From a virus, in the UHGV virus genome UHGV-0057547: 64,000 bases of DNA; one strand, given 5' to 3'. Position 1 is the stretch's first letter; the number at the start of each line of letters is the position of its first letter. The position numbers and the translations under genes are program-made. Below, in pieces: positions 3,268 to 56,846 of this stretch. Under the pieces are notes generated by a model. It did not search any database and was not told the origin of the DNA. It worked only from the letters and a program-made list of their open reading frames with translations.

Positions 3268-4604
3268 TAACTTAGTTTACTAGACAGCCCCCTATGTTTG
3301 TAAAAAGCATAGCAAATCCTTTTAATTGCTGGAAACTCCTAAAGCTCAATTCACTACAACGTAAGGTTAAATCCTAAGCGTGAATGTTACGAAAGTAGAA
3401 AAAAGTAATTGAGATTACCCAAGGTTAAATCCTAAAGGTGAATGAATGGACAATCAGCAGGGAAGATTTTAATTAACACTTAATTTTTTATAAGTTTATG
3501 AGTATAATATAAATAAGTGGAGGTGATGAAAATGACAAGAAAGATTTGGAATGAAATTACAATAAAAGAATTTATAGAAAATGAAACAAATTATAAATTC
3601 ATATCAATGGTTAAATTAAATGGAATGAAATCAATAGTGCTAGTATGGTGCGGTAATACTAATCATAAACCTTATAAAGTTCGATTTGATGCATTTAAAG
3701 GTACTTCTAAAAAAGAAGGAACGAGATGTGAACAATGTAGAAGAGAAAAGGATACTATTTGGACTAAAGATGAAATTATAAAATATGTAGAATCTCAAGA
3801 TTATAAATTTATAAGATTTGTAAAATTTAATAAATATGCAAGTATAATAGAAATTCAATGTAATAAAGGACACGAATCATATGAAACATACTTTAGTAAT
3901 TTCTATAATAATAGAAGATGTTTTCAATGTCATATAATATGGTCTAAAAAAGATATTATTAATTTTATAGAATCTCAAAATTATAAATTTATAAGATTTA
4001 TAACATATGAAAAAAATAATAGTTTAATAGAGATAAAGTGTCCTAAAGGACATATGAATCAAGTTAGATTTAGAAAATTTAAAGAAGGAACTAGATGCAC
4101 AGAATGTAATAAGTCTAAAGGTGAGGAAAAAGTAAAAGATATATTAAAAGAAATGTGTATAGATTTTAAATCACAATACAAATTCAAAGATTGTAAATGT
4201 AAAAAAGAGTTGCCATTTGATTTTTACATACCTTCATTAAATATTGCAATAGAATATGATGGAATACAACATTTTGAAATATTACCACATTGGGGTGGTA
4301 TTGATAAACTTATAGAAACTAAAATACATGATGAAATAAAAACACAATATTGTAAAAGAAAAAGAATAAAACTTATTAGAATTCCTTATTGGGAATTTAA
4401 AAATATAGAAAACATACTTATAAAAGAATTAGTGTTAAATTAGAATAACCTTCAACGACTAGAGCATAAGCTCGTACACTCAAGTGGGTGGAAATGGAGG
4501 ATACCTAGAAATAGGTAGTGATATAGTCTTGTCTCATGTGAAAGCATGAGCAGTTCATAAGAGAACGGATTAGGAGTAACGACCCTAGTCGAAAATAAAC
4601 GCAG
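3268..4604 (+). mobile_element. Group I intron A2 with an endonuclease ORF in P6
   Basis: P AATTGCTGGAAA at 3326, Q AATCAGCAGGG at 3452, R CTTCAACGACTAGAGC at 4452, S GATATAGTCTTGTCTCATGTGAAAGCATGAGCAGTT at 4530. Confidence 0.7.
3517..4443 (+). CDS. Intron-encoded endonuclease with tandem zinc-ribbon modules and a Vsr/DUF559-like PD-(D/E)XK domain
   Basis: Three modules of the form Y[KT][FL]I..........C..GH......F..G..C..C are followed by LPFDFYIPSLNIAIEYDGIQH...IKLIRIPYWEF. The ORF has its own promoter and RBS GTGGAGGTG. Confidence 0.7.
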   Translation: MEVMKMTRKIWNEITIKEFIENETNYKFISMVKLNGMKSIVLVWCGNTNHKPYKVRFDAFKGTSKKEGTRCEQCRREKDTIWTKDEIIKYVESQDYKFIRFVKFNKYASIIEIQCNKGHESYETYFSNFYNNRRCFQCHIIWSKKDIINFIESQNYKFIRFITYEKNNSLIEIKCPKGHMNQVRFRKFKEGTRCTECNKSKGEEKVKDILKEMCIDFKSQYKFKDCKCKKELPFDFYIPSLNIAIEYDGIQHFEILPHWGGIDKLIETKIHDEIKTQYCKRKRIKLIRIPYWEFKNIENILIKELVLN

Positions 4605-8783: not shown

Positions 8784-10127
8784 TAATTTGCTCCCTATGT
8801 AAGTAAATTGCATAGCAAATCCTTTTAATTGCTGGAAACTCCTAAAGCCTTGCAAACCACAACGCAACTTGAAAAAGTAAACGTGATGGTGACGAAAGTA
8901 GAAAAAATTGTAAGGATTACCCAAGGTTAAATCCTAAAGGTGAATGAATGGACAATCAGCAGGTAAGATTTATATTTATTTTACTTTACTTTTAATAATT
9001 AATTTCGTATAATTTAAGTAAATGGAGGTGGTAGATATAAAATGGACAGAAGATAGAATTAAAGAATATGTTGAAAATCAAGGATATACTTATATAAAAA
9101 GAATTGAAGGAAAAGCAAGTATGTCGATTATAGAAGTTTGGTGTGGAAATCTTAATCATAAATCTTATAGGGTTATGTTTAAAAATTTTAAAGGTAATAA
9201 AGCAAAAAAACCAACAAGATGCCCATATTGTAGTAAAAATAAAAAATTAACCATTGAAGAAGTAAGAGTATTTGTTGAAAAATATGATTTTAGTTTATTA
9301 TCTGTAGAATATATTAATAATAGAACTCCATTAACACTACAATGTAAAAATGGACATATATTTTCAATAAGATTAGATAATTTTAAACAAAGTTTAAAAT
9401 GTCCAATGTGTTATAGACATTATGGTGCTTACACCGAAGATGAAGTTAAGCAATACCTTGAAAGTTTTGGTTATGAATTACTGAATAAATATATAGATAT
9501 ACATAAAAAAATAATAATTAAATGCCCTAAAGGTCATATTTATAAAACTTCATTTAATAGTTTTAAAAATAATGGAACTAGATGTTCTATTTGTAGAAAA
9601 TCAAAAGGTGAAGAAAAAATATCTAAAACATTAAAAGAATTAAAAATAAAATTCATAAGTCAATTTGTATTCGATGATTGTCAATATAAAACATATCTTC
9701 CATTTGATTTTTATTTACCTGAATATAATATATTAATTGAATACGATGGGATTCAACACTATGAACCTGTAGACTTTGGTGGTAAAGGAAATGAATGGGC
9801 AAATAAACAACTCGAATTAACAAAAATAAAAGACAATATAAAAACACAATATTGTGAAAATAATAATATAAAACTTATAAGAATATCTTATTGGGAATTT
9901 GATAGCATAGAAAATATATTAAGTAAAGAGTTAAAAGTAAGAAAATAAATATGAATAAACTTCAACGACTATTCCGTAAGGAAGTAAAGCCACAAGCTAT
10001 TGGTGGAAGAAATGGAGGATACCTAGAAATAGGTAGTGATATAGTCTGTTCTCATGTGAAAGCATGAGCAGTTTATATTGAATGAGTATAAACGATGTAT
10101 GTGTAGCGAACATATGTGAACACAAAG
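8784..10127 (+). mobile_element. Group I intron A3 with an endonuclease ORF
   Basis: P at 8826, Q at 8956 and R at 9963. S GATATAGTCTGTTCTCATGTGAAAGCATGAGCAGTT near 10043. The 3' end is GTGTAGCGAAC...CACAAAG. Confidence 0.65.
9022..9948 (+). CDS. Intron-encoded zinc-ribbon / Vsr-DUF559-like endonuclease (paralog)
   Basis: LPFDFYLPEYNILIEYDGIQHYE...IKLIRISYWEF, preceded by repeated C..C / GH..C modules. Confidence 0.7.
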   Translation: MEVVDIKWTEDRIKEYVENQGYTYIKRIEGKASMSIIEVWCGNLNHKSYRVMFKNFKGNKAKKPTRCPYCSKNKKLTIEEVRVFVEKYDFSLLSVEYINNRTPLTLQCKNGHIFSIRLDNFKQSLKCPMCYRHYGAYTEDEVKQYLESFGYELLNKYIDIHKKIIIKCPKGHIYKTSFNSFKNNGTRCSICRKSKGEEKISKTLKELKIKFISQFVFDDCQYKTYLPFDFYLPEYNILIEYDGIQHYEPVDFGGKGNEWANKQLELTKIKDNIKTQYCENNNIKLIRISYWEFDSIENILSKELKVRK

Positions 10128-12033: not shown

Positions 12034-15000
12034 GTGAGTGAATTTGATATAAGAATTGGTACGCAACTAGATACTAGTAAAGCGTTACAACAATTGATGG
12101 AATTCGTCAAAAAATATGACAATAAAGAAAAGATAAATATAGACATAGGCCAAACAAAAGGTGCTAATAACATAAAAAACACAACCAAAGCTATGAAAGA
12201 AATGCAAAAGATAGCTAAGGCGTTAGGAAGCACAAAGATTGACATAGGTGGCAATATAGGTAAGGCTACTGGTGAAGCTACTAAATCATTAGAAAATAGT
12301 ATAGACAAACAAGCCAAATCTATTGCCAAAATAACTAGTAATGCACAAAGAGATTTAACTAAAGATGCTCAAAAAGGTATTGGGAATAGTCTTAAAGGTA
12401 TCAATGCAGAAATGAAAGATACCCAAAGAAATGTCGAGAGAATGATTAGTACTCTTGAACGAGCTAAGAAAGTTGAATTAATAGACCAAAAAGGTTTAGA
12501 TGAAGGGTTAGCTAAATTAAAAGATATGAAAGCTAATCTTAATATAGGTAATATTGACAATGTAGAAAAAAAATTAGGGGAAGTAGCAAGTGACTATAAG
12601 AAATTAATGACAGATGCAACTAAGGAAGCATTTAATAATGTTGAAGTATCAGGGTTATTAGAAGACTTAAAAGTTGTCAGAGAAGCTATGTCAGCTAAAA
12701 ACATGGATTTAAGTGGTGTTGATACTTTAATTTCTAAAGCTAAACAACTTACTTCTTTAAGTGTTGACCAAATGTTACAACAGTACAAAGAATTAAGACA
12801 AGTATTTAGTAAAGAATTAAAGATACCATTAGGTTTAAGTGGCATAATGAACGCTGAAACTGCAATTAAAAATGTTCTAGATTATAAAAACAAACTAACT
12901 GCTAAAGTTTCAGTTGAAACAAATTCAGAACAAATAGATATTTTAAAAGATAAAATAATAAGATGTGATGAAGTTGTTGAACAACTTAGAGGAGATTTAA
13001 ACTTAGTAGGTAGAAGTACAGCATTAAATTTAATGGAACAAGCTAATGAAAGAGAATTAGATACATTAAGCGCTAAATTAAAAAAATGTAAAAATGATTA
13101 TGCTAGTTTAGAAAAAGAAAGAGAAAGATTAAATAAAGATAGTAGATACCTTGGAACAGAAGATTTAAACAACATAGAGAAACAATCATTAGCCATAAAG
13201 AAAAACCTTGATAGTTTAAATGTTGGAAATTTAAATACTGATAAAATAAATAAAGTTACTGGTGACATAGATAATTTAAGAAAAACAATAGAATCAACTG
13301 GTAATTCAGCTAAAAAATTAGATATAGAAGCAACAGTTAAAGTAGATATGAAAAATGCTCAAGACCAATTAAATGGTATGTATTCTGCTTTAATAAAATC
13401 TAATAAATCTACCGTAATGGTTAAAAAATATAAAGATGAATTAGAAGGATTATTTGATTTATCTAAGACTAACCCAGGTGTAGCACTAGACAAAATAAGT
13501 GGTTTTATAGAAAAAGTAAATAAAGAAGCCAAGAATAAAGGTTTAGGTAAAATAACTGGTGGTTTAGACCAATACAAACAATACTTAAAAGATTATGAAT
13601 CATTAGTTAAAAAAGCTAGTGGTACTACTGATATTGGTTTTGCAAAAGCTTACAAATCAGAAGTTACACAAATAGAAAAAGCATTAGACCAATTAGAAAG
13701 TGGATTTAACCAAACTCAAAAATCTATGGCTAAATCTTTGAGATTAGAGTCAATTAATAAGAATACTCAAGAATTTATTAATCAAGTTGAGAAATCTATT
13801 AAGAAAACTCAAGAATATAAAAAAGAATTACAAACTCTTAATAATGATATAAATTTTGATGGTCTTACTTCTAAATTAGGTCAAAAAGTCAAAGAAGAAT
13901 TTGACGGAATGATTAATAAAACTAATCAATTAGAAAAAAGACTTGGCAATATGTTATCATCAGGTAACATAAATACTACTGAACTATCTAAGTTAAAATC
14001 AGAACTTGAAAGTACTTTTTCCGGACTTTCTAAACTTAAGGATACTAGTATAAAAATTAAAACTGATGAAACTGTATCAGGACTTAATAAAATCAAAAAA
14101 GATTTAGAAACATTAGGACAAGATACTAGTCAAATAGAAAGAGTTATTAACGCATTAAAAGAACTTAAAGCCAATTTCAATGGTGGTACAGCAGGTTATA
14201 AAGAATTAGCCAATGGAATAAAATCTATTGGAAAAGATAATAACTTAGAAAAACTAAATAGTTCTTTAGAAAAATCAGTTAAGAAATTTAATAACTTAGC
14301 TAAAGCTGTCGGAGAACTAAAGGTTAAAAATATAGGTAATATAGACCAAGGTGCTTTTCAATCTTTAGATAGTCAAGTTGCACGAATACAATCTCATATA
14401 GAAGGTTTAAATAAAAATGATATATCTTTAATAGATGTTAAAAAAGTTGAAGCAGAAGTAAATGAATTAAGCAACTGTGTAGAAAAAATGAGTAGTGAAT
14501 TAACTCAATATAGTAAATATTTGGAAGAATATAAAAGATTATCTAGTCAAGCAGGTAAAACAAATGATGTTAATTTAGCTACAAAATATCAACAAGAAGC
14601 AGAAGGTATAAAAGGTGTATTAACTCAATTAGAAAGTGAGTTTACACAAGCTCAAAAATCTATTGCTCAAGGATTAAAAACTGATGCTTTCTCTAATGCT
14701 AATGAAAAAATGTCTTCTGAAATTAATAAATCAATTAAAACAGTTGATAATCTTAAAGAAAAACTTAATACATTAGATAAAGATGTACATTTTGAAAATA
14801 TGACATCTGAATTAGGTAAAGAATTAAATAGTCAATTTGATACTTTAGCTAATAAAGGTGAAGAATTAAAAGATAAATTAAATAAAATATTAGCATCTGA
14901 TAACGTAGATATTTCTGCTTTAAGTAAAATTAAAAAAGAAATAAGCGAATTTGCAAGTGAAGTTAATAATTTAAAAAATTCTGCAATGGATAATGTTATT

Positions 15001-17166
15001 AGAGAATCTTTTGATAACATTAAAATACCTAATTTAAATAAACAACTAGAAGCCGTTAAAGATTTAATGTCACTTAAAAATATGGACACTAGTGGTATAG
15101 ATACTTTAATAGAAAGAACTAAAAAATTATCAAGTTTAAGCGTAGATAAAATAGGTCAAGAGTTTAAGGAAATACAAAATGCACTTGGTAAAGAAATTAA
15201 TTTACGTTTAGGTTCTAGTGGTATCAAAGATATAGAATCTGCATTAAAAGTTATATTACAATATAGAAATGAATTAAAAAATAAAATAGCAGTTGAAACA
15301 GATTCGTCAAAAGTAAAAGACCTTAATAACCAATTAGAAAAAACTGAGAATATAATAGAAAAGCTTAAAGGTCAAACTAGTGGTGGACTTGGTGCAAGTT
15401 TAATTAGCGATGCTAATAATAATAACTTAAAACAATTAGAAGATACTGCTAATGGATTAGAGAAAACATTCTCTAATTTAGAAAATGAAGTAAATAAATT
15501 AAACAGCGAAGCATTGAATAAGGTTGACATAAGTCAATTAAGGGAAATGAATGAAGTTGTTAATGATGTAAAGAAAAATTTAGCATCTATTGGAGAAGGA
15601 AATGTTAATGTTGATTCAATAAATAAAACAGCACAAGATATAGAAAAATTAAAAAGACTAATAGAAAACACTAAAAAGACAATTAGTGATATGAAATTAG
15701 AAGTTTCATTTAATATTAAATCAAATGAAGCAGAACAATATTTAGCAGGTTTTGAATCAGCTTTATTAAGATTAGGTAAATCAACTAGTGGAATAAATGA
15801 TTTAAAAAGTGAATTTGAAAGTATAAAAAATTCAGCTAACGGAAATTTAAGTAGTGCCATAAAAATGATTGATGACTTTATTAATAAATTAAAACAAATG
15901 GGTAGCAAACAAGGTCTAGGTAATATAAGTGGTACTATATCTCAATATAAACAATATGCTAAAGAATTACAACAAGCTATGAGTGGAGCATTGAAATCTA
16001 GTGGTTCTGATACAGCTAAAGGATTTGAACAACAAGCTGATAGAATAAAAAATGCTATGCAACGTTTAACTTCAAGTTTCAAAGAATCACAAAGAGAATC
16101 GGCTAATGCTTTTAACAGTAGTTCATTTAGTGGTTTTTCTTCTAAATATGAAGCTGAAATAAATAAAGTTGAAAAAAGTATAAACAGATTTAAATCATCA
16201 ATGCAAAATTTAGATAAAGCTGTAAACTTCAAAAGTTTCCAAAGTGATGTAGGTAGAGGTTTATCTGAACAATTTGACCAAATAATGGCGAAAGCCGAAC
16301 AATTAAGAGATAAACTAAAGAGTGCATTATCTTCAGGTACATTTGATATAAGTGAAATAAATAGAATAAAAGATGAATTAAAACAAGTTGAACAAGAAGC
16401 AGATTCATTAAAACAAAAATCTATTGTATTGAAATGTGCCGAAAGTATATCTGAATTAGAAAAGCTTAGTAGTAAACTAAGAGATATAGGTGGAGATACA
16501 TCACAAATAGACAGATTAAGAGATGAATTTGTTTCACTTGGTTCAGGTATAAAAGAGGGTACTGCTGGAATAGATGATGCAATTTCTAAACTGAAATCTT
16601 TATCTTCGGAAGCACAAAGAACTTTTAGTTCTTTTGAATCATCTACTGGTAAAATAGGTTCTTTTGGTTCTAAAATACAAGGTTTCTTTGGTTCTATTAA
16701 GGATTCATTTAGGAATTTTACTATTGGTGAATTAATGGCTGATGGTATAAATCAAGCTGTTTATCAAATAAAAGATACTATATCAGGTTTAGATGAAGCA
16801 ATGTCCGAATTTAAAAGGGTTGCTCCTGATAACTTTAGTTTAAACACATCTAACTTACAAAGTGTTGCTAATGAAGCAAGAGAAATAGGTATTAGTGTTG
16901 GGCAATCAGTAGAAGATGTTATCACTGGAATGAGTACTGCATTACAAGCTGGTGCAGGCGACATTAAAACAGCTTCTGAAATAGCTAAAAGTTCTGCTAT
17001 ATTCCAAAATGTTACAGATATGGATGCAAAAAGTGCCTCAAAAGCTATTTCTTCAATGGTTAACCAATATTATGATATGGATTCAGCATTAAATCAAGTT
17101 GACCACGGTGTAGGTAAATCTGTAAAAGGATACAATAACTTAACTGAAGCGATGGATTTGGTAATT
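12034..17166 (+). CDS. Tape measure protein (TMP), exon 1. The end is uncertain within 17166-17190.
   Basis: GTG start with RBS AAAGAGTGGTGG. Long coiled-coil repeats. TMP core motifs ...GISVGQSVEDVITGMSTALQAGAGDIKTASEIAKSSAIFQ... The stop at 17196 is followed by an HE cassette. Confidence 0.6.
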
Positions 17167-18205
17167 GATTTGCCGTTTATATTAGAAATAATATAAATTA
17201 TTAGAGGGCAAAATCGGTGAAGACTAAATATTTTAATTTATTTACTTTTAATAAAAAATATGGTATAATAATATAAAATAGGAGGGGATATAATGAGAAG
17301 ATTGAGTTATGAATATGTAAAAGAGTATATAGAAAATTTTGGTTATAAATTATTATCAAAAGAATATAAAAACAATAAAACTGAATTAGAAATACAATGT
17401 AATGATTGTGGGAATATATTCCATATGAGATTTAACAATTTTAAAGATGGTAAACATAGATGTGAATGTAAGAGCAAACCATTAGTTTTGACATATGAAT
17501 ATGTTAAAAATTATATTGAATCATGTGGATATAAATTATTATCAAAAGAATATAAAAATAATGCAACCTATTTATTGGTTTGGTGTGGAAATCCTAATCA
17601 CAAACCTTATAAAGTTAAATTTAATAATTTTAAAGATTGTAATAGTAGATGTCCTGAATGTAATACAACTTCAAAAGGTGAAGAAAAAATAAAAGAAATT
17701 CTAATAAAATATAATATAAAATTTAATCAACAATATTTATTTAATGATTGTAGAAATACAAGACCACTTCCATTTGATTTTTATTTACCACAGTATAATA
17801 TTACAATAGAATATGATGGGAGACAACATTATAAATTAGATTGTTTTAATATGAATTTATTAGATTTAATGAATTTGAAATATAATGATAATAAAAAAAC
17901 ACAATATTGCAATAATAATAATATAAAACTTATAAGAATACCATATTGGGATTTTAATAATATAGAAAAAATACTTAAAAAAGAATTAAAAGTAAATTGA
18001 ATAAAGTACAAGTTAATACCGAGATAACTTATTAGATTACGAAAAGGCTAATAAGTATTGTAGAGCATAGAGGATGAATAAATATAACTCCTCCAAGAGT
18101 GTCCTCCATCCTAACGTAAAGACGAGGATGAAAATATATGCCATACTGAATTGGAATAGACCAATTGATGAAAATGAGGGAAACCTCCAGAGCATAAGAT
18201 AAAAA
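17167..18205 (+). mobile_element. Type-B intron-like insertion B1 with a Vsr/DUF559-like endonuclease ORF
   Basis: 5' block TTAGAGGGCAAAATCGGTGAAGACTAA. After the ORF comes AATACCGAG...CCTCC...TAACGTAAAGACGAGG...GAAAATATATGC...AGATAAAAAG. This core is shared with B2 at 19883-20151. Confidence 0.5.
17293..18000 (+). CDS. Intron-encoded zinc-ribbon / Vsr-DUF559-like endonuclease (paralog, 2 modules)
   Basis: RPLPFDFYLPQYNITIEYDGRQHY...IKLIRIPYWDF. Promoter and RBS GGAGGGG lie upstream. Confidence 0.65.
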   Translation: MRRLSYEYVKEYIENFGYKLLSKEYKNNKTELEIQCNDCGNIFHMRFNNFKDGKHRCECKSKPLVLTYEYVKNYIESCGYKLLSKEYKNNATYLLVWCGNPNHKPYKVKFNNFKDCNSRCPECNTTSKGEEKIKEILIKYNIKFNQQYLFNDCRNTRPLPFDFYLPQYNITIEYDGRQHYKLDCFNMNLLDLMNLKYNDNKKTQYCNNNNIKLIRIPYWDFNNIEKILKKELKVN

Positions 18206-18238
18206 GCTTATGGATAATAACAATAGAAATTACGCTGG
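18206..18238 (+). CDS. TMP 33-nt mini-exon (LMDNNNRNYAG)
   Basis: Exactly 11 codons lie between the B1 3' G (AGATAAAAAG|) and the A5 5' splice site GCTGGT|. The putative P1 is CUGGU with AGCCAG, including a U-G pair. Confidence 0.4.
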
Positions 18239-18620
18239 TTAGAATTAGCCAGGCTATATGGAGACATATAGTACAAATCTCTTTTGAATTGCTGGAAAGG
18301 ACTTAGAGCCTATTGAACTACAACGTAGATGGAAACATCAAACGTGAATGTTAAAAAATCAATAGGATTGTTCAATCAGCAGGTAAAATTCTAAGTGATA
18401 ATTTATCATATGAATAAACTTCAACGACTATCCCTTGGATTTGCTAATTTAGTAAATCAATAGGAGTACGGCTCAAGCGATTGGAGTGGGTGAGAATCCC
18501 TTAAATGGAAGTGGAAGAGGACTTATAAAAGTTCAAGATATAGTCTACTCTCGTAGGAAATCTACGAGCAGTCCTTTTTTTGGACGGTATGTATATAGCG
18601 AATACATATGAATATTAAGG
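18239..18620 (+). mobile_element. Group I intron A5, no ORF
   Basis: P2 hairpin CTATATGGAGACATATAG, P AATTGCTGGAAAGG at 18287, Q AATCAGCAGGTAAAATTCTAAG at 18375, R at 18421, S AAGATATAGTCTACTC at 18541. The 3' end is ...ATGAATATTAAGG. Confidence 0.7.
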
Positions 18621-19004
18621 AATAACTTCGCAATTTCATCTGATGGTGTAACAGAAGCATTACAACGTGGTGGTTCTGTATTATCTAACTATGGAGTAGA
18701 TTTAAAAGATTCCATTGCAATGATAACTGGAGCAAATGAATCTTTACAAGACCCTGCTCGTATAGGTAATGGTTTAAAATCTATAGCAATTAACCTTTCA
18801 GGTATTAAAACAAATGCACAAACAGGTGCTCTTGAATTAAATAAAACAGCAAAAGCATTACAAGAAACTGCTAAAATAGATATATTTACTGATAAATCTA
18901 AAACACAAGTTAAAGATATTGTTAGTATACTAGATGAAGTAAAAGATAAATGGGCTTCTTTGACTGATGTTGAACAAAAAGGATTATCAGAAGCCATAGC
19001 AGGT
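18621..19004 (+). CDS. TMP exon 3
   Basis: In-frame NNFAISSDGVTEALQRGGSVLSNYGVDLKDSIAMITGANESLQDPARIGNGLKSIAINLSG..., which is the typical TMP core region. Confidence 0.55.
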
Positions 19005-20151
19005 AGTATGTAAGATTTTGTCTTATTAATTTATTGAATAGACATTATACAAAAATAGTAGTATAATATAAGTAATAAATTAATAAGGAGGGAACTTTCA
19101 TGGGGAAAAGTTCAAAAGATAAATATGAATTAGGTAAAGAAATGTTTTTACAAGGGAAAACAACAATGAATATAGCAAAAGAATTAAATATATCAAGAAG
19201 TAGATTTTCAAGATATTTAAGGGAGTGTGGAATAGATAGTCAACAATATCATAAATTTCCTATAGATGAAAATGTTTTTAATGTAATAGATACAGAAGAA
19301 AAAGCGTACTGGTTAGGATTTTGGTTTGCAGATGGATATGTAAGTTCAAATAGAAATACAGTAGGTATTGATTTAAAACCGAGCGATTTAAATCATCTAA
19401 ATAAATTAAAAACATTTTTAAAATGGAAAGGCGATATAAAAGTAGAAGAAACTAGATGTAGATTAAATTTTAGAAATGATAAAATTAAGAATGATTTAAT
19501 AAAATATGGATGTGTTCCAAATAAATCATTAACGTTAAAATTTCCAAAATCTATAAAAGAAAGTTTTATTCCAGCTTTTATAAGAGGTTATTTTGATGGC
19601 GATGGCTGTTTATGTTACACTGAAAAGACATTAGAAGTAAGCGTAATAAGCACTTATGAATTTCTTGAATCTATATGCGACATAATTAACATTGATAAAA
19701 AAAGAATATATGATTTAAATAAAAATAAAAAAACAAGTCGTATAGTTCTTAGTTCAAAAAAAGATATTAAAAACTTTCTTGAATATATTTATAAAGATGC
19801 TAATATTTACTTAGATAGAAAATATGAAAAATATAAAAATCTTAAAACTGCCGTCTTTGATAGAAATATTAAAGATAATTAGAGGGATGTATCGGTGAAG
19901 CCTAAGTCGAAAGATATGGTAATACCGAGGGTATCTTAACAGAGAATATCCGTAACGCATAGGGAGTGAGCGATATTGTTAGCAATAACCTCCCCACGAG
20001 CTTCCTCCACGATTATATATATAAGAATAATCACTTATAGATGTTGCTACTATAAGTTCTAACGTTAAACGAGAGTGAAAATATATGCTGGACTTATGAG
20101 AAATCATAAGAAGTGGATGTGTGAATTGACACACTATTAATAGATAAAAAG
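19005..20151 (+). mobile_element. Type-B intron-like insertion B2 with a LAGLIDADG ORF
   Basis: The ORF begins right after the 5' junction. The post-ORF core matches B1 (AGAGGGATGTATCGGTGAAG...AATACCGAG...TAACGTTAAACGAGAG...AGATAAAAAG). Confidence 0.5.
19100..19882 (+). CDS. LAGLIDADG homing endonuclease, double-motif
   Basis: The two LAGLIDADG-type motifs are YWLGFWFADGY and IRGYFDGDGC. RBS AAGGAGGG. Confidence 0.75.
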   Translation: MGKSSKDKYELGKEMFLQGKTTMNIAKELNISRSRFSRYLRECGIDSQQYHKFPIDENVFNVIDTEEKAYWLGFWFADGYVSSNRNTVGIDLKPSDLNHLNKLKTFLKWKGDIKVEETRCRLNFRNDKIKNDLIKYGCVPNKSLTLKFPKSIKESFIPAFIRGYFDGDGCLCYTEKTLEVSVISTYEFLESICDIINIDKKRIYDLNKNKKTSRIVLSSKKDIKNFLEYIYKDANIYLDRKYEKYKNLKTAVFDRNIKDN

Positions 20152-20286
20152 CTCCACGATAACAAATCGAAAACTCAAGCCGGTGTATTCCAAGCATTAA
20201 TGACAGGTTGGGAAAGAGTTCGTCAATATCAAAAAGAATACAATGAAGGTTGGATGATAGGTTCAGCTCAAAGAGAGAAACAACAT
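20152..20286 (+). CDS. TMP exon 4
   Basis: Open frame LHDNKSKTQAGVFQALMTGWERVRQYQKEYNEGWMIGSAQREKQH. It ends at a codon boundary on U, before intron sequence TCTCCGTATGTACAG. Confidence 0.4.
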
Positions 20287-20658
20287 TCTCCGTATGTACA
20301 GAAATGTGCATAGGACATAGATTTAATTGCAGGTAATCCCTAAAGCTCTACACCACAATATATCTGAAAAGAATATATGAAGGTACGAAAGTAGAAAAAA
20401 CGTAGAGATTCTCATATGGTTAAATCCTAAGTGAGAGTAACAATGGGTGTTCATGCAGGTAAGATTCTAAGTGATAATTTATCATATGAATAAACTTCAA
20501 CGACTAGAATGCAAATTCGTAGGGTGTAAGCGATTGACACTCGAAAAGGTCTACCCTTAATATTAAGGTGAAGAAATAGTCTACTCTTATAGGAAACTAT
20601 AAGCAGTTTTCATATAAAGAAAACGGATTAAGTGTAGCGAACTTAATTGAATAAATGG
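20287..20658 (+). mobile_element. Group I intron A6, no ORF
   Basis: P variant AATTGCAGGTAATCCC at 20327, Q GTTCATGCAGGTAAGATTCTAAG at 20460, R at 20497, S GAAGAAATAGTCTACTC. The 3' end is GTGTAGCGAACTTAATTGAATAAATGG. Confidence 0.65.
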
Positions 20659-23600
20659 AATGAAATCTATATGGATTCCATTGCTGGTAAATTTAATACT
20701 TTAAAAGAAAATCTTAAAGGAATATTAACTAGCAATGTTACAACAGATATGTTTAAAGGACTATTAGATGGTGCTAATAAAGTAGTAGAAGCAGTAGGAA
20801 AAATAAGTTCAAGCTTAGGTAAAATTGGTTCTGCTGGTGCATTAGTAGGTATTTCATCTTTTGTAAAAACTTTATCAAATTTAGATAAAGCTAAAACAAT
20901 AGGTGGTGGTTTTACAGGATTTGATAACCTATTAGAAGTAATACAAGGTACTGCTGTTACTTCTTCCGGTGAAATAAAAACACTAGGCGATAGTTTTAAA
21001 GAATTAGGTGTTAAGACAACTCTATCTAAAGTAGCATTAGGATTATTTAAAGGTGTATTAATGGGTATTGCATTTACTGCTGTTGTTAAAGGAATAGATG
21101 CTATGGTAAAAGCATGGGACAATTATATTCATGCAACAGAAAATGCAGTAAAGGCTTCTAAAGAAAGACAAGATGGATATAGAGACGAAGCACAAACATT
21201 AAGTACTAAAAAATCAAGTCTACAAGAAATAGCTAAAGAATATGATAATTTAAATAATAAATCTGATAAAACTGCTGAAGATTTAACTAGATTAAATGAA
21301 TTAAAACAACAAATAGGACAAATAGCTCCTGACCTTGTTAAAGGATATGATTCAGCAGGTAATCCAATATTAAATCTTACTACTAGTATGCAAGGTTATA
21401 TAGCTGAATTAGATAAAGCAATCGCTAAACAACGAGAACTATATAATTATGAAACTAAAAAACAAGCACGAGAATATATGAAGAAAAATGACACTAAAAA
21501 TGGTGCTCAAGACCCTGAAAGAAATTCTTATGAAACTGAATTAAATCATCTTCAAAATGCAAATGATAGAAAAACTAGAGAAGAAAAAAGATATACTGGT
21601 AGTTTAAAAAATATTATTAAAGATAGAAATAAATATAGAGAAGACCAAGAAAAAAGTATTAATGATAGATTAGAAAGAATTAGAAATGCACAAACAGAAG
21701 TTAATAATAGAGATACTACAATTGAAGATAATTATGTTAACGAATTTAATAAGAAAACTAAATTAGCCGAAAAAGAACAAAATAAATTTGCTACTTTTAT
21801 GAAAGGACTAAATTGGGGTACTTATGGTGAAGCAGAAGCCAATAGAATGGCTAAAGGTTTACAAACATTATCTGAAAAAACTGCGTTTACAACTCAAGAA
21901 ATGACAAAAGGATTATCAGGTAGTATGTCAAAAAAAGTTTCAGCAGAAATTGCTAAAGTAAATGCAGAATTCAAAAAGACAAATGCCATAAACGAATGGG
22001 GAAAAAATTTAAGAAATATAGCTAATGAAACAGGAAAATTTGATTTTTCAAATTGGAGTAATTACTTATCAGAAGTTCAAACTCGTTTTGAACAAGGAGT
22101 AAGTACTAATGAACAATATACACATTCATTAGGAATCATGGCTGATGCTATGGAAGATTTAACTGGTATAGATTCAGATGTATTCTTACCAGCTTTAAAA
22201 GGTGGAGCAGATTTAGAAGAAGCCTTTAAATCAGCAACTGAAGGTTTAAATGGTTTTATGAGTGCTTATGGTTCTTCTACTGCAAAATTACAACAAGGCG
22301 ATTCATTTGCTAAAAAGTTAGAGTCTCAATTTAAAGAACTTGAAAATTTTGAAACTGAATTTGAAGGTCAATATGAGATGGAAGGTAAAGTTAGGGTAGA
22401 CTGGTTAATAGAACAAAAAGATAATAAAGATTTACCTAAACAATTAAGAACTATAATAGATGCGGTAACAAAAGACAATGAAGTAACAGAAGTAGAAGAA
22501 AAATTAGTATTAGCCTGTGAAACAGAAATAAAAGATAAAGGTAAGTTGGAACAAAGTACAATAGATGCAATAAATCAAGTAATGGACGGAACATGGGATG
22601 TAAATAAAACTATTGAAATAGGTGGTATGGAATTTACATCATCTGAAATAAAAGAATTAATGTCATTAGCTGACCAATTAGGTATATCTTTAGAAGGCTT
22701 AAATATTGGTGATACAGGATTAGATGGAGAAGCTCAAAAAGCTCAAGCATTAAAAGATGCAATAGATTCAATCTCAGATAGAGAAATAAAAGTAGCAATA
22801 GAGGCTGAAGGATTTGAAAATTCCGACCAAGTTAACAATATAATGTCAGTTGTTGACCAAATAGATGGAAGACAAGCTAAAGTTGATTTTATAGCAGATG
22901 CTTCTCAATACTTTATGGAAAATGATAGTGTTGAATCAGCAATAGAAGCTATGCCTGATGAAATAAAACTTAAATATAATATTGGGGTTGAAGGTGATGA
23001 AAGACTAGAAGGAATACAAAGTAGACTTGAAAAATTACCAAAAGATATTAGAACTATGGTATATGCTCAAACATATGGTGTAGAAAATGTTGAAATGCTA
23101 GAAAAAATGGTAGATACTTTTGGTGGAAAAACTGCAACAGCAATATTACAAATAGAAGGTATACAAGATTCTCTTAAAAATGCTACTACATTTGAGGAAC
23201 AATTAAAAATAATTGGAGACTATGTATGTAAACCTGGAGTAGAAATAGAAGGTAAAGATAAAATACTTGACACAATTGATAGCATATTAAAGAAATTAAA
23301 AGAAACAGATGGTAAAGAAGGTAAAGCTAAAGTAGAAGTAGAAGGAGATACTTCAGGAGCTGAGAAAGTAGAGAAAAAAGTAGAAGAAGTAGATGGTAAG
23401 GAAGGTAAAGCTAAGGCAAAAGTTGATGGAGATACTTCAGGAGCAGATAAAGTAGAGAAAAAAGTTGATGAAGTGGACGGCAAGGAAGGGACTGCTAAAG
23501 TAAAAGTAGATGCTGATACTTCTGAAGCTGAAAAAGCTAAAAAAGAAGTAGACAATTTAGCTGTTAATAAAAATGGTACAGTTACTTTATTAGTAAATGG

Positions 23601-26600
23601 TCAAGAAAAAATAGCAGAAGCCAAAATCAATAAAGGTCAATTAGAAGTAGATGGTAAAGCAGTTACGACTATTTCTGTTAATGGTAAAGACCAATTGCCA
23701 GTTGCTATTAATGAAAAAGGTCAATTAGAAGTAAATGGTCAAGCTATAACTAATGTTAATGTTAATGGTAAAGACCAATTAACTTTGGCTAGAAATGAAA
23801 AAGGGCAATTAGAAGTAAATGGTAAAGCTATAACTAATATCGATGTAACAGGAAAAGAAAAAGTTTCTGATGCAAAAAAAGAAGTTGACGATTTAACTAA
23901 AGATAATAAAAATGTTAGTATTAATATTGATGTCTCATTAAAAGAAACTGTTGGTGAAATATTATCAAGATTTGGACTAAATAAGAAAACAGAAAATGTT
24001 GAAATTAACGTATCATGTAATGATAATGCAACTCCAGTATTAGAAAAAATAATGTCAAGACAAGATAAAACTATACATATAACAGTAGATTGTACAGACC
24101 ATGCAACTTCTAAAATAAACAATATAACTAAAATCGGAAATAAAACTGTAACAGTTACAATAAATTGTCAAGATAATGCTACTCCTAAAATAAATAGTGT
24201 GGCTAAGTTAGGAAATAAATCTGTAACAGTTACAATAAATTGTCAAGATAACGCAAGTTCTACGATAAACAGGGTTACAAGCGCACCTTCTTCTAAGTCA
24301 ATAAATGTTGTAGTAACTTGTTCAAATGGAGGAGCAGTTCTTAATACTCTTTCACAATTGGCTAGTAAAGTAATACCTAGCAAAAAATTTACTATAACTT
24401 GTGCAGATAGTGCTAGTAGTGTAGTAAGTAGAGTTAATGGTTTAAGAATATCTGATAAGAGATTTAAAATAGATTGTACAGATAATGCAACTGCTAAAGT
24501 AAATAGAGTTATTAGTAAAAAAATACCAAATAAATCATTTACTATAAGTTGTAACGATAACGCTAGTGGTAAGTTAAGCAGTATTATAAGCAAAATAAGT
24601 AATATCCATAGTAAATCAGTAACAATTACTACTAATCATGTAAGTAAAGGTGAAAAATCATCTGTTGGCGAACCAACAATTGTTGATTTACAACCTCAAC
24701 CATTTGGTAGTGCTCAAGCTTCTAATCCTCAAGTACAATCATTAGGCGAACAAGTTCAAGTATTAAGTGATAGTGTACAACAACAAACTGACAATAATAA
24801 TGAAGTTAGTGTAATGGCTAAGAAAACATATAAAGCCAATATTGATACTGGTTTAACAGTAAGTGCAGTTAAATATAATATTGATTTATTAACTAACATG
24901 AATAATCTACTTAAAAAATTAGGAACTCAAGTTGATATATTAAAAGCTAAACAAGAAAGAACTTGGGGTAATGCAAGTGCTAAATTACTTAGAAGTCAAA
25001 TTGCTTTACTAACTAAACAACAAAGTTTAACTAAAGTAAATATTAAGAACATGGAAGGCATGGCTAAAAAACTTAAGGGTAGTTTACAAAAACAAGGATT
25101 TAAGTTTAAAGATGATGGAACAATAAGTAATTACAATAGTAAACTTGTTAAAATGCAAAAAACTGTTGAAAGTTTAGAAAAAGCCGAAAAAGCATTAGAA
25201 GACCAAATAGATAAAACTGAGAAACAAATTTCAAAATCTGAAAAGAAATCTTCAAGCAAGAAAAAATCAACTAGTAAAAAGAAATCTTCAAGTAAGAAAA
25301 AGAGTACAAGCAAAAAGAAGAAAACTTCAAGTAAGAAAAAATCAACTAAGAAAAAGAGCACTACTAAGAAGAAATCAACTAGTAAGAAAAAGAGCTCTAG
25401 TAAGAGCAATAGAAAGACTACATCAAGTAAAGCTAGTAAAAAGAAAACTACTAAGAAGAAAAAATCAACTAGCAAGAAAAAGAGTACATCAACTAAGAAG
25501 AAAAGTACTAAGAAAAGCACTACTAAAAAGAAATCGACTAAGAAGAAGAGTACTAAGAAAAGCACTAAGAAGACAAGCACTAAATCAAAAGCAACTAAAG
25601 CATTAGAAAGTAAGAAGAGTGGATTAGAAAAGAAAAAAGATGCAATAAGCAAAAAATTAGAAAAAGCACAAAAAGAATTATCAGAAACTCAAAGCAAATT
25701 AAATGAATATTATAATCTACAATTTAGCGAAATTCCTGAAGCTCAACAACAATGGGAAGAATATGCTAATGCTATTGCAGAAGCTAAGGCAGAAATAATT
25801 AGATGTGAATTAGAAGCTAAAACATTCTTCAAGACAATTAAAATGGAAATGAAGGATGCTATGATTAGCAGAAATGAAACTTGGGCAGATACATTTATGT
25901 TAAAAGCTGATTTAAGTAGTTGGTCTAAGGCAGTAGGATACATTAAAGAAGCTAATAAATTATTAGAAAAAAATCAAAAACATCAACAATCAAAATTAGA
26001 AACTGCACAAGATAGAGCAAATGATAATAAAGCATTCTTAAAGAAACAAGGATTTAAATTTGATAAAAATGGATATGTAACAGGTGCTGAAAAAACTTTA
26101 GAAAAAATAAAAAAATCTAAATCTACTCAAGAATATGATGCTATAAAAGAAGCATTTGACCAATATGTTGAAGATATGTATGAAAACATTCCTAAAGCTG
26201 AAAATGAATGGTGGAAATTAGAACAAGAAATAAAGGAAAATGAAAGACAAATAAAAGAAACCACTAAGGCTATGAATGACTTAGTTAATTCAGCTAAGGT
26301 AGATAAATTAACTAGACAATTCGATGTACTTTCAAATAGTTTAGATATATTAGACCTTAAAATGGAACGTGCTTATGGAGCTAATAAAATAGACTATATG
26401 CAACAACAACTTGATATATTGACTAGTATGAAGAATAAGAATCAAGAAATTATTAATCAAAATACTGAGTTGTTAAATGATAGTAAGAAACAATTAGCTC
26501 AATATGGTATTACATTTGATGAAGATGGCAATATAGATAATTTATCAAGTGCATTGAAAAAATTAGATAATTTACAAGACATGGAAGATTTACAAGACTT

Positions 26601-27270
26601 AGTTGATGAATATAATGATTATAAAGATTCAATAGATGATGCTAGTAAATCAATTGAAGAAGAAACTAATAAACAACTTGAATTAAAAGATTCAATGATG
26701 GAAATTAGAGAAGAAATGAGAAAACTTAGAGATGATGCGTGGGTTAAAACTTATGAAAATGGTCTAAAAGTTATTCAAAATCGTATTGATACAATAGATT
26801 CTTTATTAGATTTGGAAGATGAAAATCAATTTGGTTTACTAAATCAAAAAATTGAAGAATATAAGAATTTAACTAAGGCAACTGAAGATAGTTTAGCTTA
26901 TCAAAAACATAGAAAAGTTACTATGCAAAAAACATTAATTGATTACGGATTCACTATTAATGATGATGGTACAATAGATGGAACTGCTAATAAATTAGAA
27001 CAACTTAAAAATACATTATCTGAAACTGAATTTGGTATAGTAAGTGATACATTAGAAGATTATTTTGATACTGCTTTAGATACAATTCCTGAATTAGAAA
27101 GAGAATTAATAAAATATCAAAAAGATTTAAAAGATATACAAAATACTAAACTAGAAAAAACTAAAACTATTGAAGAAAAAATTACAGAAATATATAATGA
27201 TGAAATAGATAAAAGAACTAAAAAGATACAAGAAGAAGCAGAAGCACAAACTAAAGCACTAAATAAGGCT
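20659..27270 (+). CDS. TMP exon 5, about 2,204 aa. It carries internal tandem repeats and a K/S/T-rich tract.
   Basis: In frame from the intron's 3' G. Sequence NEIYMDSIAGKF... The ORF-track TTG start at 20647 lies inside the intron's 3' end. Confidence 0.55.
23290..23560 (+). repeat. Three tandem coding repeats in the TMP of about 60 nt each
   Basis: The repeated peptide is (V/A)EGDTSGAEKVEKKV(E/D)EVDGKEGKAK. Confidence 0.6.
24090..24620 (+). repeat. About eight tandem coding repeats in the TMP
   Basis: The repeat is ...TVTINCQDNATPKIN.V.K.GNKS... with degenerate copies. Confidence 0.55.
25240..25610 (+). repeat. Low-complexity K/S/T-rich coding tract in the TMP
   Basis: KKSSSKKKSTSKKKSSSKKK... 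runs for about 120 aa. Confidence 0.6.
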
Positions 27271-27498
27271 AAATTTAGCCTGGTTGTCGAGTAATCGGCT
27301 TCAAAAATAATAGATTTAATTGCAGGTAATTCCTAAAGCCTTACACCACAAGCACAGAGAAATCATGTGTTGAAGGTACGAAAGTAGAAAAAACGTAAGG
27401 ATGGATATAAGGTTAAATCCTAAGTATCCAAACATATTTATATATGTTAAAATGGATGTTCATGCAGGTAAGATTCTAAATTAAATTATTTTAAATAT

Positions 27499-27541: not shown

Positions 27542-28444
27542 GTGGAATATATGGGTCAAAAATTGAATAGAAAAAAAATAGAAAAATATATAAATCAATA
27601 TAATTATGAAGTTTTATATTGTAAACATGATAAAAATAAATATAAATGGAAACTCATTTTAATGTGCCCTAATTTTCATATTTTCAAAATGGATTTTGAT
27701 AAATTTCAAAATAATAGAAGATGCCCTTGTTGTAATGGTTCTAAGTATAATGAAGATTTTGTTAGAGAATATATGTTAAATAATGGAGATATACTTTTAT
27801 CTCATTATCATAATGGAAATGAAAAATTAAAAGTAATGTGTAAATATGGTCATATTTTTTATCCAATATTTAATAATTACTATAATAAAAATTCAAGATG
27901 TCCATATTGTAATGGGAATATAACTATGGAGCATAAAAGTTTTATTAATAGATTAAATACAATTAACCCTAACATAGAAATATTGGGTGAATATAAAAAT
28001 AGTCATACTAAAATTAAATGTAAGTGTAAAATAGATGGGCATGAATGGGAGGCAAAGCCTACTAATCTATTAGGAAGTAAAAATGCAAAACCAACTGGAT
28101 GTCCAAAGTGTTATAGACGAACTTATCGAGGTGAAACACATCCTTTATTTGACCATAGTAAAACAAAAGAAGATAGAGAAGATGATAGAAGTTATTTTGA
28201 ATATAATGAATGGAGAACTAAATGTTTTGAGAGAGATAAATATACTTGTCAAGTTACCGGACAACAAGGTGGAAGATTAGTAGTACATCATTTATATTCT
28301 TATAATAAATATTATTGTTTAAGAACGACATTGGAAAATGGTATAACAATATCAGAAGAAATACATAAAAAATTCCATTCTATTTATGGAAATGGAAATA
28401 ATACATTCGAACAATGGGAAGAATTTATTAAAAGTTTAAAATAA
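27542..28444 (+). CDS. Intron-encoded HNH endonuclease with N-terminal zinc-ribbon modules
   Basis: The zinc-ribbon modules resemble those of the Vsr-like family. The C-terminus carries CQVTGQQGGRLVVHHLYSYNKYYCLRTTLENGITISEEIHKKFH. Confidence 0.65.
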   Translation: MEYMGQKLNRKKIEKYINQYNYEVLYCKHDKNKYKWKLILMCPNFHIFKMDFDKFQNNRRCPCCNGSKYNEDFVREYMLNNGDILLSHYHNGNEKLKVMCKYGHIFYPIFNNYYNKNSRCPYCNGNITMEHKSFINRLNTINPNIEILGEYKNSHTKIKCKCKIDGHEWEAKPTNLLGSKNAKPTGCPKCYRRTYRGETHPLFDHSKTKEDREDDRSYFEYNEWRTKCFERDKYTCQVTGQQGGRLVVHHLYSYNKYYCLRTTLENGITISEEIHKKFHSIYGNGNNTFEQWEEFIKSLK

Positions 28445-53755: not shown

Positions 53756-55138
53756 ATGGCAACAGAAGGTAAAAAAATAAGTCAATTAACAGAAGTGTTA
53801 AGTGTTGACAAAGAAAATGACTATATAATCGTACAACGTGGGACAGATAATAAAAAGTTAAAATTAGCCAATGTGATGACTACGGATAATATGGGCGACA
53901 ATTATGTTGATTTAAAATCATATGAAGATAAAAGTGAATTCAGATTAATTATAAATGATGATGGAAAAGTTCAAGTATTTCCAAAAGAATGCGTTGAAGG
54001 TCATACTTATGCTGAAAATGATAATTTACAAATGCCCTTAAAATTAGCTAGCTATATAGGTAATTCTCAAACTGCATTATCTACTGCTAATAATGGAGGT
54101 ATTGTTATAAATCAAATTTATGGTGGTGGAGATTTAATTCCTAGTTCAACTTTACAAGCACCTAGCGTTAGTCATAGTTTTGTTGAACTATATAATTGTA
54201 ATGTTGTAGATATTAATCTAAAGGGATTATATTTACATTATAAAGGTAATGATGAAACTGTTTGGAAAACATTAGCATTAAGAGGACTTTTACCAGCTCA
54301 TACTGCTTTTTTAATTAGAGGTAAACAACACGGAGATTTAATGAGTGACTTAGTAAGATGTAAAATATATGATTATGACCAAGAATGGATAGATGCTGAT
54401 AAAAATGAACCAATAGCATTTAGTAGAAATGGTATGTCAATGTATTTATCAACTAACTCAGTACCTCCTGAAGTAAATGAAAATCCAAATAGATATCTTA
54501 TAACTACTGATAGTACTGGTGTATCAACATTATCATATGTTGATGGATATTATGTAGATTTATTAGGTGTAGGTAGTGCTGATGGAACTAAGAACCCAGT
54601 TGCATATGAAAAATTCTATTGGACTTGTATGGATAAAGATACTGCAATAAGAAGAATAGATTTTTACAATAATAAGAATAACAAATATGATTCAAAAGCT
54701 ATAAATTATAAAACTTGCAATATAGAACATTATAGACCAAGAAGTTTAAGAGATGGAATTTGGGATAACTATTGTGATAAAGCAAGTATAAATGAAAATA
54801 TACCTAATCTTATAGATATAACTTTTGGTGAACAACCTACAACAAGACTTTTTACATGGCAATCTGTTTTAACAGATAATGGTTGTGTGAGACTTAGAAG
54901 AATAAAAGATAAAAGTGGAGTAGCAGTAACTGAAAATTGGAAAGAATATGAAAGTGAACGTGAAATAGTTAATAATCATGGTACATTTATGACAATACAT
55001 AGAACTAAAATAACTAATATAACACCTGGTTTATATGAATATCAATGTGGAAAAGAAGGTTATTGGTCAGATATACAAATGATAGAAATGAGAGAATATA
55101 CAGATACTAGCACTATTAAAATGCTATGGACTACGGAT
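53756..55138 (+). CDS. Lamin-tail-domain / purple acid phosphatase-like metallophosphoesterase, exon 1
   Basis: The lamin-tail-domain motif is SFVELYNCNVVDINLKGLYLHY. The PAP N-terminal domain motif is ...TPGLYEYQCG. Confidence 0.5.
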
Positions 55139-56747: not shown

Positions 56748-56846
56748 GACATTTCACAAAACGCCTCTAATTTATTTGAATGGTTATATTACACTGATTA
56801 TGCTAAAGAATTTTGTAGAAATATACCTCATTTAACAGCTTGTGGT
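56748..56846 (+). CDS. Metallophosphoesterase exon 3 (33 codons)
   Basis: DISQNASNLFEWLYYTDYAKEFCRNIPHLTACG ends in GUGGU. The putative IGS GCCAC lies in the intron and includes a U-G pair. Confidence 0.45.

Follow-up and report, generated by a model that had tools for sequence, protein, structure and literature searches.

Two probable group I introns with different endonuclease genes in a phage tape-measure gene

The 64,000-nt stretch of virus genome UHGV-0057547 analysed here (the window) raises the question whether two related insertions in one of its genes are introns and, if so, of which kind. The window is AT-rich, and its open reading frames (ORFs) at 12034-17196 and 20647-27294 are pieces of a single gene for the tail tape-measure protein (TMP). 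By protein, the nearest named relatives, at ~45% identity, are phiCD211, phiCDIF1296T and AR1086-1, 130-kb phages of Clostridioides difficile. An earlier note on this DNA had proposed that the insertions B1 and B2 form a second intron class (type B) with a common ribozyme core, distinct from the type-A introns of the window, which have the classical P/Q/R/S elements. A full set of group I helices with covariation, U and G at the intron ends and a restored reading frame bear this proposal out. B1 and B2 are very probably mobile group I introns of the TMP gene, belonging to one phage IA-type lineage that has the layout of the Bastille phage intron and re-wired P4 and P7 helices.

All sequence blocks listed earlier as common to the two insertions were found in both. 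AGAGGG....ATCGGTGAAG.CTAA lies at 17203-17226 in B1 and 19881-19904 in B2, AATACCGAG at 18015-18023 and 19921-19929, TAACGT..ACGAG with GAAAATATATGC at 18112-18141 and 20060-20088, and AGATAAAAAG at 18197-18206 and 20142-20151; the two CCTCC blocks likewise occur in both. This sharing is far beyond chance, and motif searches recovered the blocks in 9 and 49 IMG/VR loci. The blocks are the conserved group I core, namely P3, P4, P5, P4', P7.1/P3', P8 and J8/7-P7'. An nhmmer profile of 15 homologues matches only two places in the window, B1 and B2 (E 4e-51 and 1e-36), which therefore holds exactly two type-B copies.

The exons were joined by the rule that each intron is preceded by U and has G as its last base. 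The resulting translation contains ...AMDLVNYAGNNFAISSDG..., ...SEAIAGKTQAGVFQALM... and ...GSAQRENEIYMDS... and aligns by tblastn with the TMPs of phiCD211, AR1086-1 and Brevibacillus phage Sundance, with no gaps over all four junctions; these TMPs are uninterrupted at the B1 and B2 sites. This gap-free match to uninterrupted proteins places B1 at 17163-18226 and B2 at 19005-20169, and removal of the two restores the tape-measure frame exactly. The B1 junctions are also fixed by an intron-less allele in contig L054, the exons of which are 99% identical. The bounds proposed earlier were thus right for the 5' end of B2 (19005) and wrong elsewhere: B1, given as 17167-18205, was off by 4 nt at its 5' end and short by 21 nt at its 3' end, and the 3' end of B2, given as 20151, was short by 18 nt. 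The sequence AGATAAAAAG, formerly taken as the intron end, is actually the loop of the 3' hairpin P9a. It is followed by 18-20 further intron bases, and the true 3' ends read ...AACAAUAG and ...ACAAAUCG. A 3' boundary at the former position was rejected, since it would insert LHDNKS, which is not in the homologues, and would fall within a hairpin loop. Together with the neighbouring type-A introns A1 and A2, the four predicted introns, of two ribozyme lineages, would cut the gene into five exons, one of them only 13 nt long.

17163-18226, plus strand: B1 group I intron, 1064 nt (L054 allele, protein homologues, covariation in 15 homologues)
19005-20169, plus strand: B2 group I intron, 1165 nt (ungapped TMP junction, covariation)
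12034-17162, plus strand: TMP exon 5' of B1, ending ...GAUUUGGU (ORF list, TMP alignment)
18227-18239, plus strand: 13-nt mini-exon AAAUUACGCUGGU between B1 and A1 (homologous TMPs, L054 allele)
18621-19004, plus strand: TMP exon between A1 and B2, ending ...GCAGGU
20170-20277, plus strand: TMP exon of 108 nt between B2 and A2

The last four bases of the first exon (UGGU) pair with the B1 guide sequence, and the spliced translation ...AMDLVNYAGNNFAISS matches the TMPs of the Clostridioides phages ungapped. The mini-exon finishes a Val codon and encodes NYAG, which is ungapped in the TMPs of phiCD211 and AR1086-1, and the intron-less L054 allele runs directly through it (GATTTAGTGAATTATGCTGGCAATAAT). 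At the B2 junction, AIAG followed by KTQAGVFQALM is ungapped to the phiCD211 and Sundance TMPs.

These observations bear on the alternative that the B elements are not spliced at all, being free-standing endonuclease cassettes that split the TMP into separately translated polypeptides. Gene callers on public contigs do call the pieces as genes in their own right (1720, 97 and more residues), and Rfam reports no intron at either site. However, the pieces join in frame and free of gaps when compared to intact TMPs, the gene is uninterrupted in the 99%-identical relative, and the NYAG of the 13-nt exon, which lacks its own start codon, is conserved in homologues. In addition, copies lacking the ORF retain a conserved and covarying RNA of ~350 nt. 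Taken together, we consider the cassette explanation hardly credible. Inteins do not fit the locus either, since the exon frame is closed by stops at 17194-17196 and after 19004.

That the spliced elements belong to group I is indicated by their ends and by their folds. Both B1 and B2 have U at position -1 and G as the last intron base. The terminal G is also found in 13 homologues, which end ...UUG, ...AUG or ...UAG, and U before the 5' splice site, paired with a guide G, recurs in the introns of Bacillus phage AR9 and in homologue L030. The elements of the predicted B1 fold are the following.

17159-17162 with 17172-17175: P1, UGGU up to the splice site with GCCG, read by sequence inspection
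17168-17171 with 18227-18230: candidate P10
17176-17197: P2, GAAA loop
17204-17209 with 18101-18106: P3
17214-17219 with 18017-18022: P4
18024-18058: P6
18065-18069 with 18137-18141: P7
18070-18093: P7.1
18107-18130: P8
18146-18190: P9 domain
18193-18212: P9a, CAUAAG-AUAAAAAG-CUUAUG
18226: end of the tail, terminal G

The corresponding elements of B2 are as follows.

19002-19007 with 19847-19852: P1, GGU before and AGU after the splice site with ACUGCC, by sequence inspection
19855-19874: P2, GAAA loop
19882-19887 with 20002-20007: P3
19892-19897 with 19923-19928: P4
19901-19919: P5 with an 11-nt GAAA receptor (CCUAAG...UAUGG)
19930-19951: P6
19957-19961 with 20084-20088: P7
19962-19994: P7.1
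20008-20077: P8, three hairpins
20093-20110: P9, GAAA loop
20113-20157: P9a
20169: end of the tail, terminal G

For the guide of B2, a proximal candidate GUCU (19020-19023) was rejected in favour of ACUGCC at 19847-19852, which gives a 6-bp P1 and adjoins P2, as do the guides of B1, AR9 and other homologues. Secondary-structure prediction, suggested earlier as a check, agrees with the drawn fold in that P2, P4-P5, P6 and P9 are recovered when the B2 core is folded by energy alone (z = -3.0).

The covariation analysis employed 15 ORF-less homologues aligned with MAFFT, on which the helices were drawn and the pairs counted, with 500 shuffles for comparison. As drawn, 86.8% of the cells are paired, compared to 33-46% with slid partners, and the covariation score is 0.49 as against 0.08-0.14. 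Both sides change in 39 of the 56 pairs, and none of the 500 shuffles attains the observed values. P3 covaries in all six of its pairs (GAGGGC/GUCCUC, CCGGGG/CUCCGG, UAAACC/GGUUUA, UCGAGC/GUUCGA), and changes on both sides were counted in seven of seven pairs in P2, two of three in P8 and four of five in P7.1, the 5-bp stem of which is paired in 100% of cells; covariation was likewise seen in P9, P9a and the pair that closes P5. P7 starts with a G-C pair in 15/15 sequences, and this pair is predicted to serve in guanosine binding. The core helices and the invariant J8/7-P7 bases are all intact in both B1 and B2.

Several points weigh against this reading. The splicing of B1 and B2 is inferred from sequence and not observed. 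P7 (GCAUA/UAUGC) and most of P4 are invariant in the 15 homologues, so that P7 and those P4 pairs yield no covariation evidence, and the MAFFT alignment of P6 was poor (41% of cells paired). The P5 receptor motif of B1 is degraded where the ORF was inserted. P1 of B2 has only three exon base pairs, and no P10 was found for B2. The promoter-like sites of the endonuclease ORFs are not above background (20 versus 22.2 in shuffled sequence). Finally, the covariance-model search proposed earlier as a check fails with RF00028, the only group I model of Rfam (gathering score 50 bits): there is no match at B1 or B2 (16800-21000) even at E <= 10, none in the AR9 introns at E <= 1, and scores are below the gathering score in all 10 genuine B-type genome loci tested. 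Rfam also found nothing in the Staphylococcus phage F1 locus. Since this check fails for B1 and B2, the type-B class was established by comparison of homologues.

A link to the general model is provided by L008, an ORF-less type-B element and one of the nine IMG/VR loci. RF00028 aligns to it over the full model, positions 1-253 (31.4 bits, E 3e-6), and identifies AGAGGGC as P3, AAA as J3/4, AUCGGUG as P4, CCUAAG...UAUGG as P5, AAUACCGAG as P4', ACGCAUAG as the R element, GUCCUCC as P3', GAAAAUAUAUGC as the S element and a GAAA-capped hairpin as P9. No Rfam group II match was obtained at E <= 10, and the ORF-less type-B RNA is just ~300-350 nt long.

It may also be asked whether B1, B2 or both are decaying, either unable to self-splice and leaving a broken TMP, or dependent on a protein helper. 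LAGLIDADG proteins act as maturases in some organellar introns, and the ORF of B2, as described below, is of this family. The damage to the B1 receptor by ORF insertion, the short P1 of B2 with no evident P10 and an ORF that overlaps its guide and P2, and the sub-threshold scores against the general group I model could all be explained in this way. On the other hand, the intactness of core helices and J8/7-P7 bases in both elements is at odds with decay, and the exact B1 ORF protein is found on at least 31 metagenomic contigs of up to 204 kb, which argues that the arrangement persists in viable phages expressing an essential TMP. From these contigs, the window is taken to come from an uncultured phage of ~204 kb. 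Decay or helper dependence is judged quite unlikely, and mobile group I introns remain the preferred explanation.

On this preferred reading, the late transcript would fold so that the guide beside P2 pairs with the final exon bases, with the splice-site U held as a U.G wobble in P1. The P5 of B2 is a canonical 11-nt receptor, and from motif identity the tertiary design appears to set the GAAA loops of P2 and P9 opposite receptor-type modules in P8 and P5, into which they would dock. Free guanosine would then attack the 5' splice site, after which the terminal G (18226 or 20169) would fill the invariant G-C site of P7 and the exons would be ligated. Catalysis and tertiary contacts are here proposed by analogy with characterised group I introns. 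Together with both type-A introns, these reactions would rebuild one continuous tape-measure mRNA that includes the 13-nt exon. Each B intron also carries its own endonuclease gene with a ribosome-binding site and a promoter-like sequence of its own; during co-infection, alleles without the intron would be cleaved by the endonucleases and would acquire a copy of it through repair.

The two endonuclease ORFs were correctly described earlier, both in kind, Vsr-like in B1 (the best structural match is Vsr) and LAGLIDADG in B2 (LAGLIDADG_3), and in placement, after the AGAGGG block in B1 and before it in B2.

17293-18000, plus strand: B1 endonuclease ORF, 235 aa, in loop L5
17241-17269: promoter-like site of the B1 ORF
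17280-17287: strong Shine-Dalgarno sequence of the B1 ORF, AGGAGGGG
19100-19882, plus strand: B2 endonuclease ORF, 260 aa, in loop L1
19039-19067: promoter-like site of the B2 ORF (promoter scan)
19085-19092: strong Shine-Dalgarno sequence of the B2 ORF, AAGGAGGG

The B1 product has two internal CapR-like zinc-ribbon repeats and a C-terminal Vsr-like nuclease with the conserved motif PFDFY...IEYDGxQH. It matches PHROG families 559, 9084 and 7140 (homing or intron-encoded endonucleases; best E 4e-57), and its Pfam CapR match is weak (E 0.002, 18.5 bits against a cutoff of 24.2). The databases hold more than 2000 homologues, many of which, among those listed, carry PF21817, PF14311 or PF05265 (CapR, DUF4379 or DUF723). 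Sequence searches of the PDB with this ORF and with a six-paralogue profile gave only insignificant matches (best for the profile 3hrl, E 1.2), and a fold search was therefore needed. With an AlphaFold model from 45 sequences (pLDDT 91.3), the top PDB folds were Vsr (1cw0, 1vsr), AbaSI and 3hrl, at probabilities of 0.96-1.0; the E-values, however, were weak (0.012 or worse). A 2025 study described, from phage group I and II introns, a large outgroup of EDxHD/Vsr homing endonucleases in which CapR-like repeats accompany the EDxHD/Vsr-like nuclease (PMC12350094). Compared by architecture, the B1 protein resembles that family in having ~60-aa CapR/DUF4379/DUF723-like repeats followed by a ~100-aa Vsr-like nuclease and in being intron-encoded, and differs in having two repeats instead of three to five.

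The B2 product carries LAGLIDADG_3 (PF14528) in two stretches (48 bits against a cutoff of 22.5, E 1.6e-12) and matches the endonuclease family PHROG 4645 (E 2e-56). Its score above the Pfam cutoff and its position in an intron loop are those of LAGLIDADG intron endonucleases. It differs from them by an additional N-terminal helix-turn-helix, indicated by weak HTH_23/HTH_7 matches, and by a 3' end that overlaps the intron: the guide ACUGCC (19847-19852) and the P2 hairpin lie inside the ORF, the stop codon of which abuts the first base of P3. By analogy with these families, both products would be active endonucleases with target sites of their own.

The B1 ORF has five paralogues in the window. 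Among the ORFs of type-A introns, those at 3517-4443, 9022-9948, 27542-28444 and 55844-56590 end within 5 nt of an R element (the R elements start at 4439, 9949, 28449 and 56595) and are therefore placed in the P6 loop. Of these, 3517-4443, 9022-9948 and 55844-56590 align as paralogues of the B1 endonuclease. As the B1 member sits in L5, one endonuclease family has entered two ribozyme lineages in different loops.

In near-identical relatives, contigs with exon identities of 96-99% to the window, the introns occur as a cycle of homing, decay and loss would lead one to expect. L009 has B1 with its ORF, and L013 and L014 have B1 with a clean 708-nt deletion of the ORF that spares the promoter-like site as well as ~12 nt at the 3' end of the ORF; L054 is without B1 and A1. 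L007, L011 and L014 have B2 with its ORF and are without A2. Synonymous differences are concentrated around the empty intron sites. A third type-B intron is found in the TMP gene of L011, L014 and L054, after ...QDPARIGNGLK, between GNGLK and S. In L054 it occupies ~610-1355, and in L011 and L014 a spacing of ~1.2 kb from P4 to P7' implies an ORF. The window itself is uninterrupted at this site (18765-18800).

Each B intron is closely followed by a type-A intron, as had been noted, at a distance of 13 nt for B1 and 108 nt for B2.

18240-18620, plus strand: type-A intron A1, classical P/Q/R/S, absent together with B1 in L054
20278-20658, plus strand: type-A intron A2, with a 2-nt register ambiguity; the register chosen keeps the terminal G
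56905-56927, plus strand: P5 hairpin of type-A intron A11 with the CCUAACGUAAAGACGAGG module, as in P8 of B1 (18-nt exact match)

In A1, P1 is formed by 18235-18239 (CUGGU) and GCCAG at 18248-18252, and the R/S repeat families D9, D14 and D19 are shared. A2 is precisely absent from L007, L011 and L014, the exons of which read CAAAGAGAAAATGAAATC. In every register of A2 the last base of the 5' exon is G or A and never the U expected of group I (20270-20290, 20650-20662); with the terminal G at 20658, P1 would be GAG before and AA after the splice site, opposite UUCUC, and the splice site itself would fall on a G-C pair. The design recurs in a homologous intron near 63752 (~63745-63775), with GGAGG before and AAACAAUAUUCCUC after the splice site. 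RF00028 finds three introns in the window, all of type A (55130-55403, 56841-57104 and 57553-57887). It misses A1 and A2 too, even at E <= 10 and despite their classical P/Q/R/S, and the repeat families show ~10 R elements in the window compared to the three Rfam introns. The TMP region around B2 is a recurrent intron target. In AR1086-1 the position that corresponds to B2 is preceded, at a distance of 7 nt, by a type-A intron (L004:2284-2580), and in phiCD211 a type-A intron annotated Intron_gpI lies at yet another TMP site.

The earlier note had also observed that a type-B block recurs between P and Q of A11, and had taken this as a hint of relatedness or chimerism between the classes. The block, TAACGTAAAGACGAGG, is indeed present at 56908-56925, in a hairpin between AATTGCTGGGAA (P) and AATCAGCAGG (Q) within the Rfam hit at 56841-57104. 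Type B might accordingly have arisen by recombination of type-A introns with another lineage, with this block as its footprint. Such an origin would account for the exact 18-nt match between P8 of B1 and P5 of A11, and in B1 a P3-P8 core resembling that of B2 is joined to a P9 domain resembling that of AR9 (80-85% identity), while the P4-P6 of AR9 differs. The latter mix hints at an exchange of domains within the lineage. On the other hand, the block is a complete hairpin (CC-UAA-CG...CG-A-GG) that is self-contained and receptor-like, occupies different helices in the two introns and recurs in dozens of B-type introns, so that convergent or modular re-use suffices without recombination of A and B. 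Outside the block and J8/7-P9, type A and type B have marginal similarity at best (E 0.08-2.7). The shared block thus stands, chimerism between the classes is weakly supported and a recombinant origin rather unlikely; the occurrence in P8 of B1 and P5 of A11 would fit re-use of an RNA module.

Two further repeats were seen in the window. Within the TMP gene, at 25196-25550, an 18-nt unit with a Lys/Ser/Thr-rich product is repeated in tandem ~12 times or more. The ORF at 40133-42709 contains four tandem units of ~252 nt (69-81% identical) at 40663-41677, which probably encode a domain repeated within a tail or fibre protein.

Type-B introns also occur elsewhere, where they interrupt TerL at the Walker A and B motifs as well as other tape-measure genes. 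In L016, L006, L052 and L038 the intron immediately precedes QGKTFL (Walker A), and Pfam Terminase_6N is matched by the flank of L016. In L055 the intron immediately precedes IDESR (Walker B); the TerL call there rests on likeness to IIDEFR of L016, the flank being without a Pfam hit. A pattern scan of bacterial genomes gave 81 matches, 58 of them with flanking type-B motifs and mostly from Bacilli and Clostridia. The remaining ~23, which include Nocardia, Sphingomonadaceae and Saccharibacteria, have no flanking B motifs and were rejected as chance; a rough estimate from pattern length and database size puts the chance expectation at the order of 100. Because of such chance matches, no distribution is claimed beyond mostly Firmicutes. 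In a Levilactobacillus acidifarinae contig, a type-B signature, presumably in a prophage, has a ROOL RNA (115.7 bits) and three tRNAs some 1.7 kb away (L130:4056-5299).

For annotation, the consequence is that gene callers report fragments of the TMP and that Rfam does not flag type-B introns; with a dedicated type-B model, many calls of TerL and tape-measure genes that are now split in phage metagenomes would be mended. One may go further and propose that type B is a coherent phage IA-type sub-lineage, not separately catalogued, with re-wired P7 and P4 and scores below the Rfam threshold, that resides in TerL, tape-measure, GyrA and tail genes of many Firmicutes phages and prophages. We hold this broader proposal tentatively, as slightly more doubtful than probable. 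If true, intron load and hence gene fragmentation in phage annotation would be systematically underestimated. The locus in addition offers a compact natural series for the homing cycle, with an intron that has its endonuclease gene, lacks it or is itself missing.

Among known systems, the closest parallel in host gene is found in prophages of the Bacillus cereus group, where TMP-IVS1 to IVS3 are group I introns of subclasses IA1 and IA2 at different conserved sites of one TMP gene, vary in presence among strains and have guide sequences that fit each site (Tourasse and Kolsto 2008, PMC2504315). Likened by description, that system and the present one agree in that a single TMP gene harbours several group I introns from two subclasses. 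They differ in host clade and in sites, and here four introns lie in ~3.5 kb, with one exon of 13 nt.

The two insertions in gyrA (DNA topoisomerase II) of the Bacillus jumbo phages AR9 and PBS1, where the coding sequence of AR9 is annotated as a three-part join, share with type B the P7 sequence GCAUA/UAUGC, P7.1, P3', P8, the P9/P9a/tail region and the U before and G at the end of the intron. They are 80-85% identical to the 3' 120-150 nt of B1. Differences are the lack of an ORF, a length of ~330-350 nt, another P4-P6 sequence, another host gene and another host genus.

In layout, type B corresponds to the DNA polymerase intron of Bacillus phage Bastille (I-BasI, GenBank AY256517). P3, J3/4, P4, GAA and P5 with the CCUAAG...UAUGG receptor occur there in the type-B order, followed by P4', P6, P7, the P7.1 insertion, CACGAG and then P3', P8, J8/7 and P7', and by UGAAC, P9 with a GAAA loop, P9a and a GGUAACAUAAUUG tail ending in G; a homing-endonuclease ORF occupies a peripheral loop. 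P4-P5 is 84% identical to that of B2 over 49 nt, and P7.1 gives type B the extra helix between P7 and P3' that is a trait of IA2-type introns. In contrast, the R/S of Bastille is the classical ACGACUA/AUAGUC, the form that the type-A introns of the window also carry, whereas type B has ACGCAUA/AUAUGC in 15/15 sequences. In P7 this difference amounts to a double compensatory swap of two adjacent base pairs (GACUA/UAGUC versus GCAUA/UAUGC), and in P4 UUCAGAG/UUCUGAG stands against UCGGUG/UACCGA. The Bastille ORF is furthermore an HNH enzyme in P8, and the host gene is another. The DNA polymerase introns of SPO1 and SP82 are known relatives of the Bastille intron. With the Bastille layout and altered P7 and P4, type B therefore looks like a phage IA-type sub-lineage. 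B1 and B2 are new members of a well-known kind of element and perhaps mark a recognisable sub-lineage of it; they leave the current understanding of group I introns unchanged and are a good but ordinary example of known biology.

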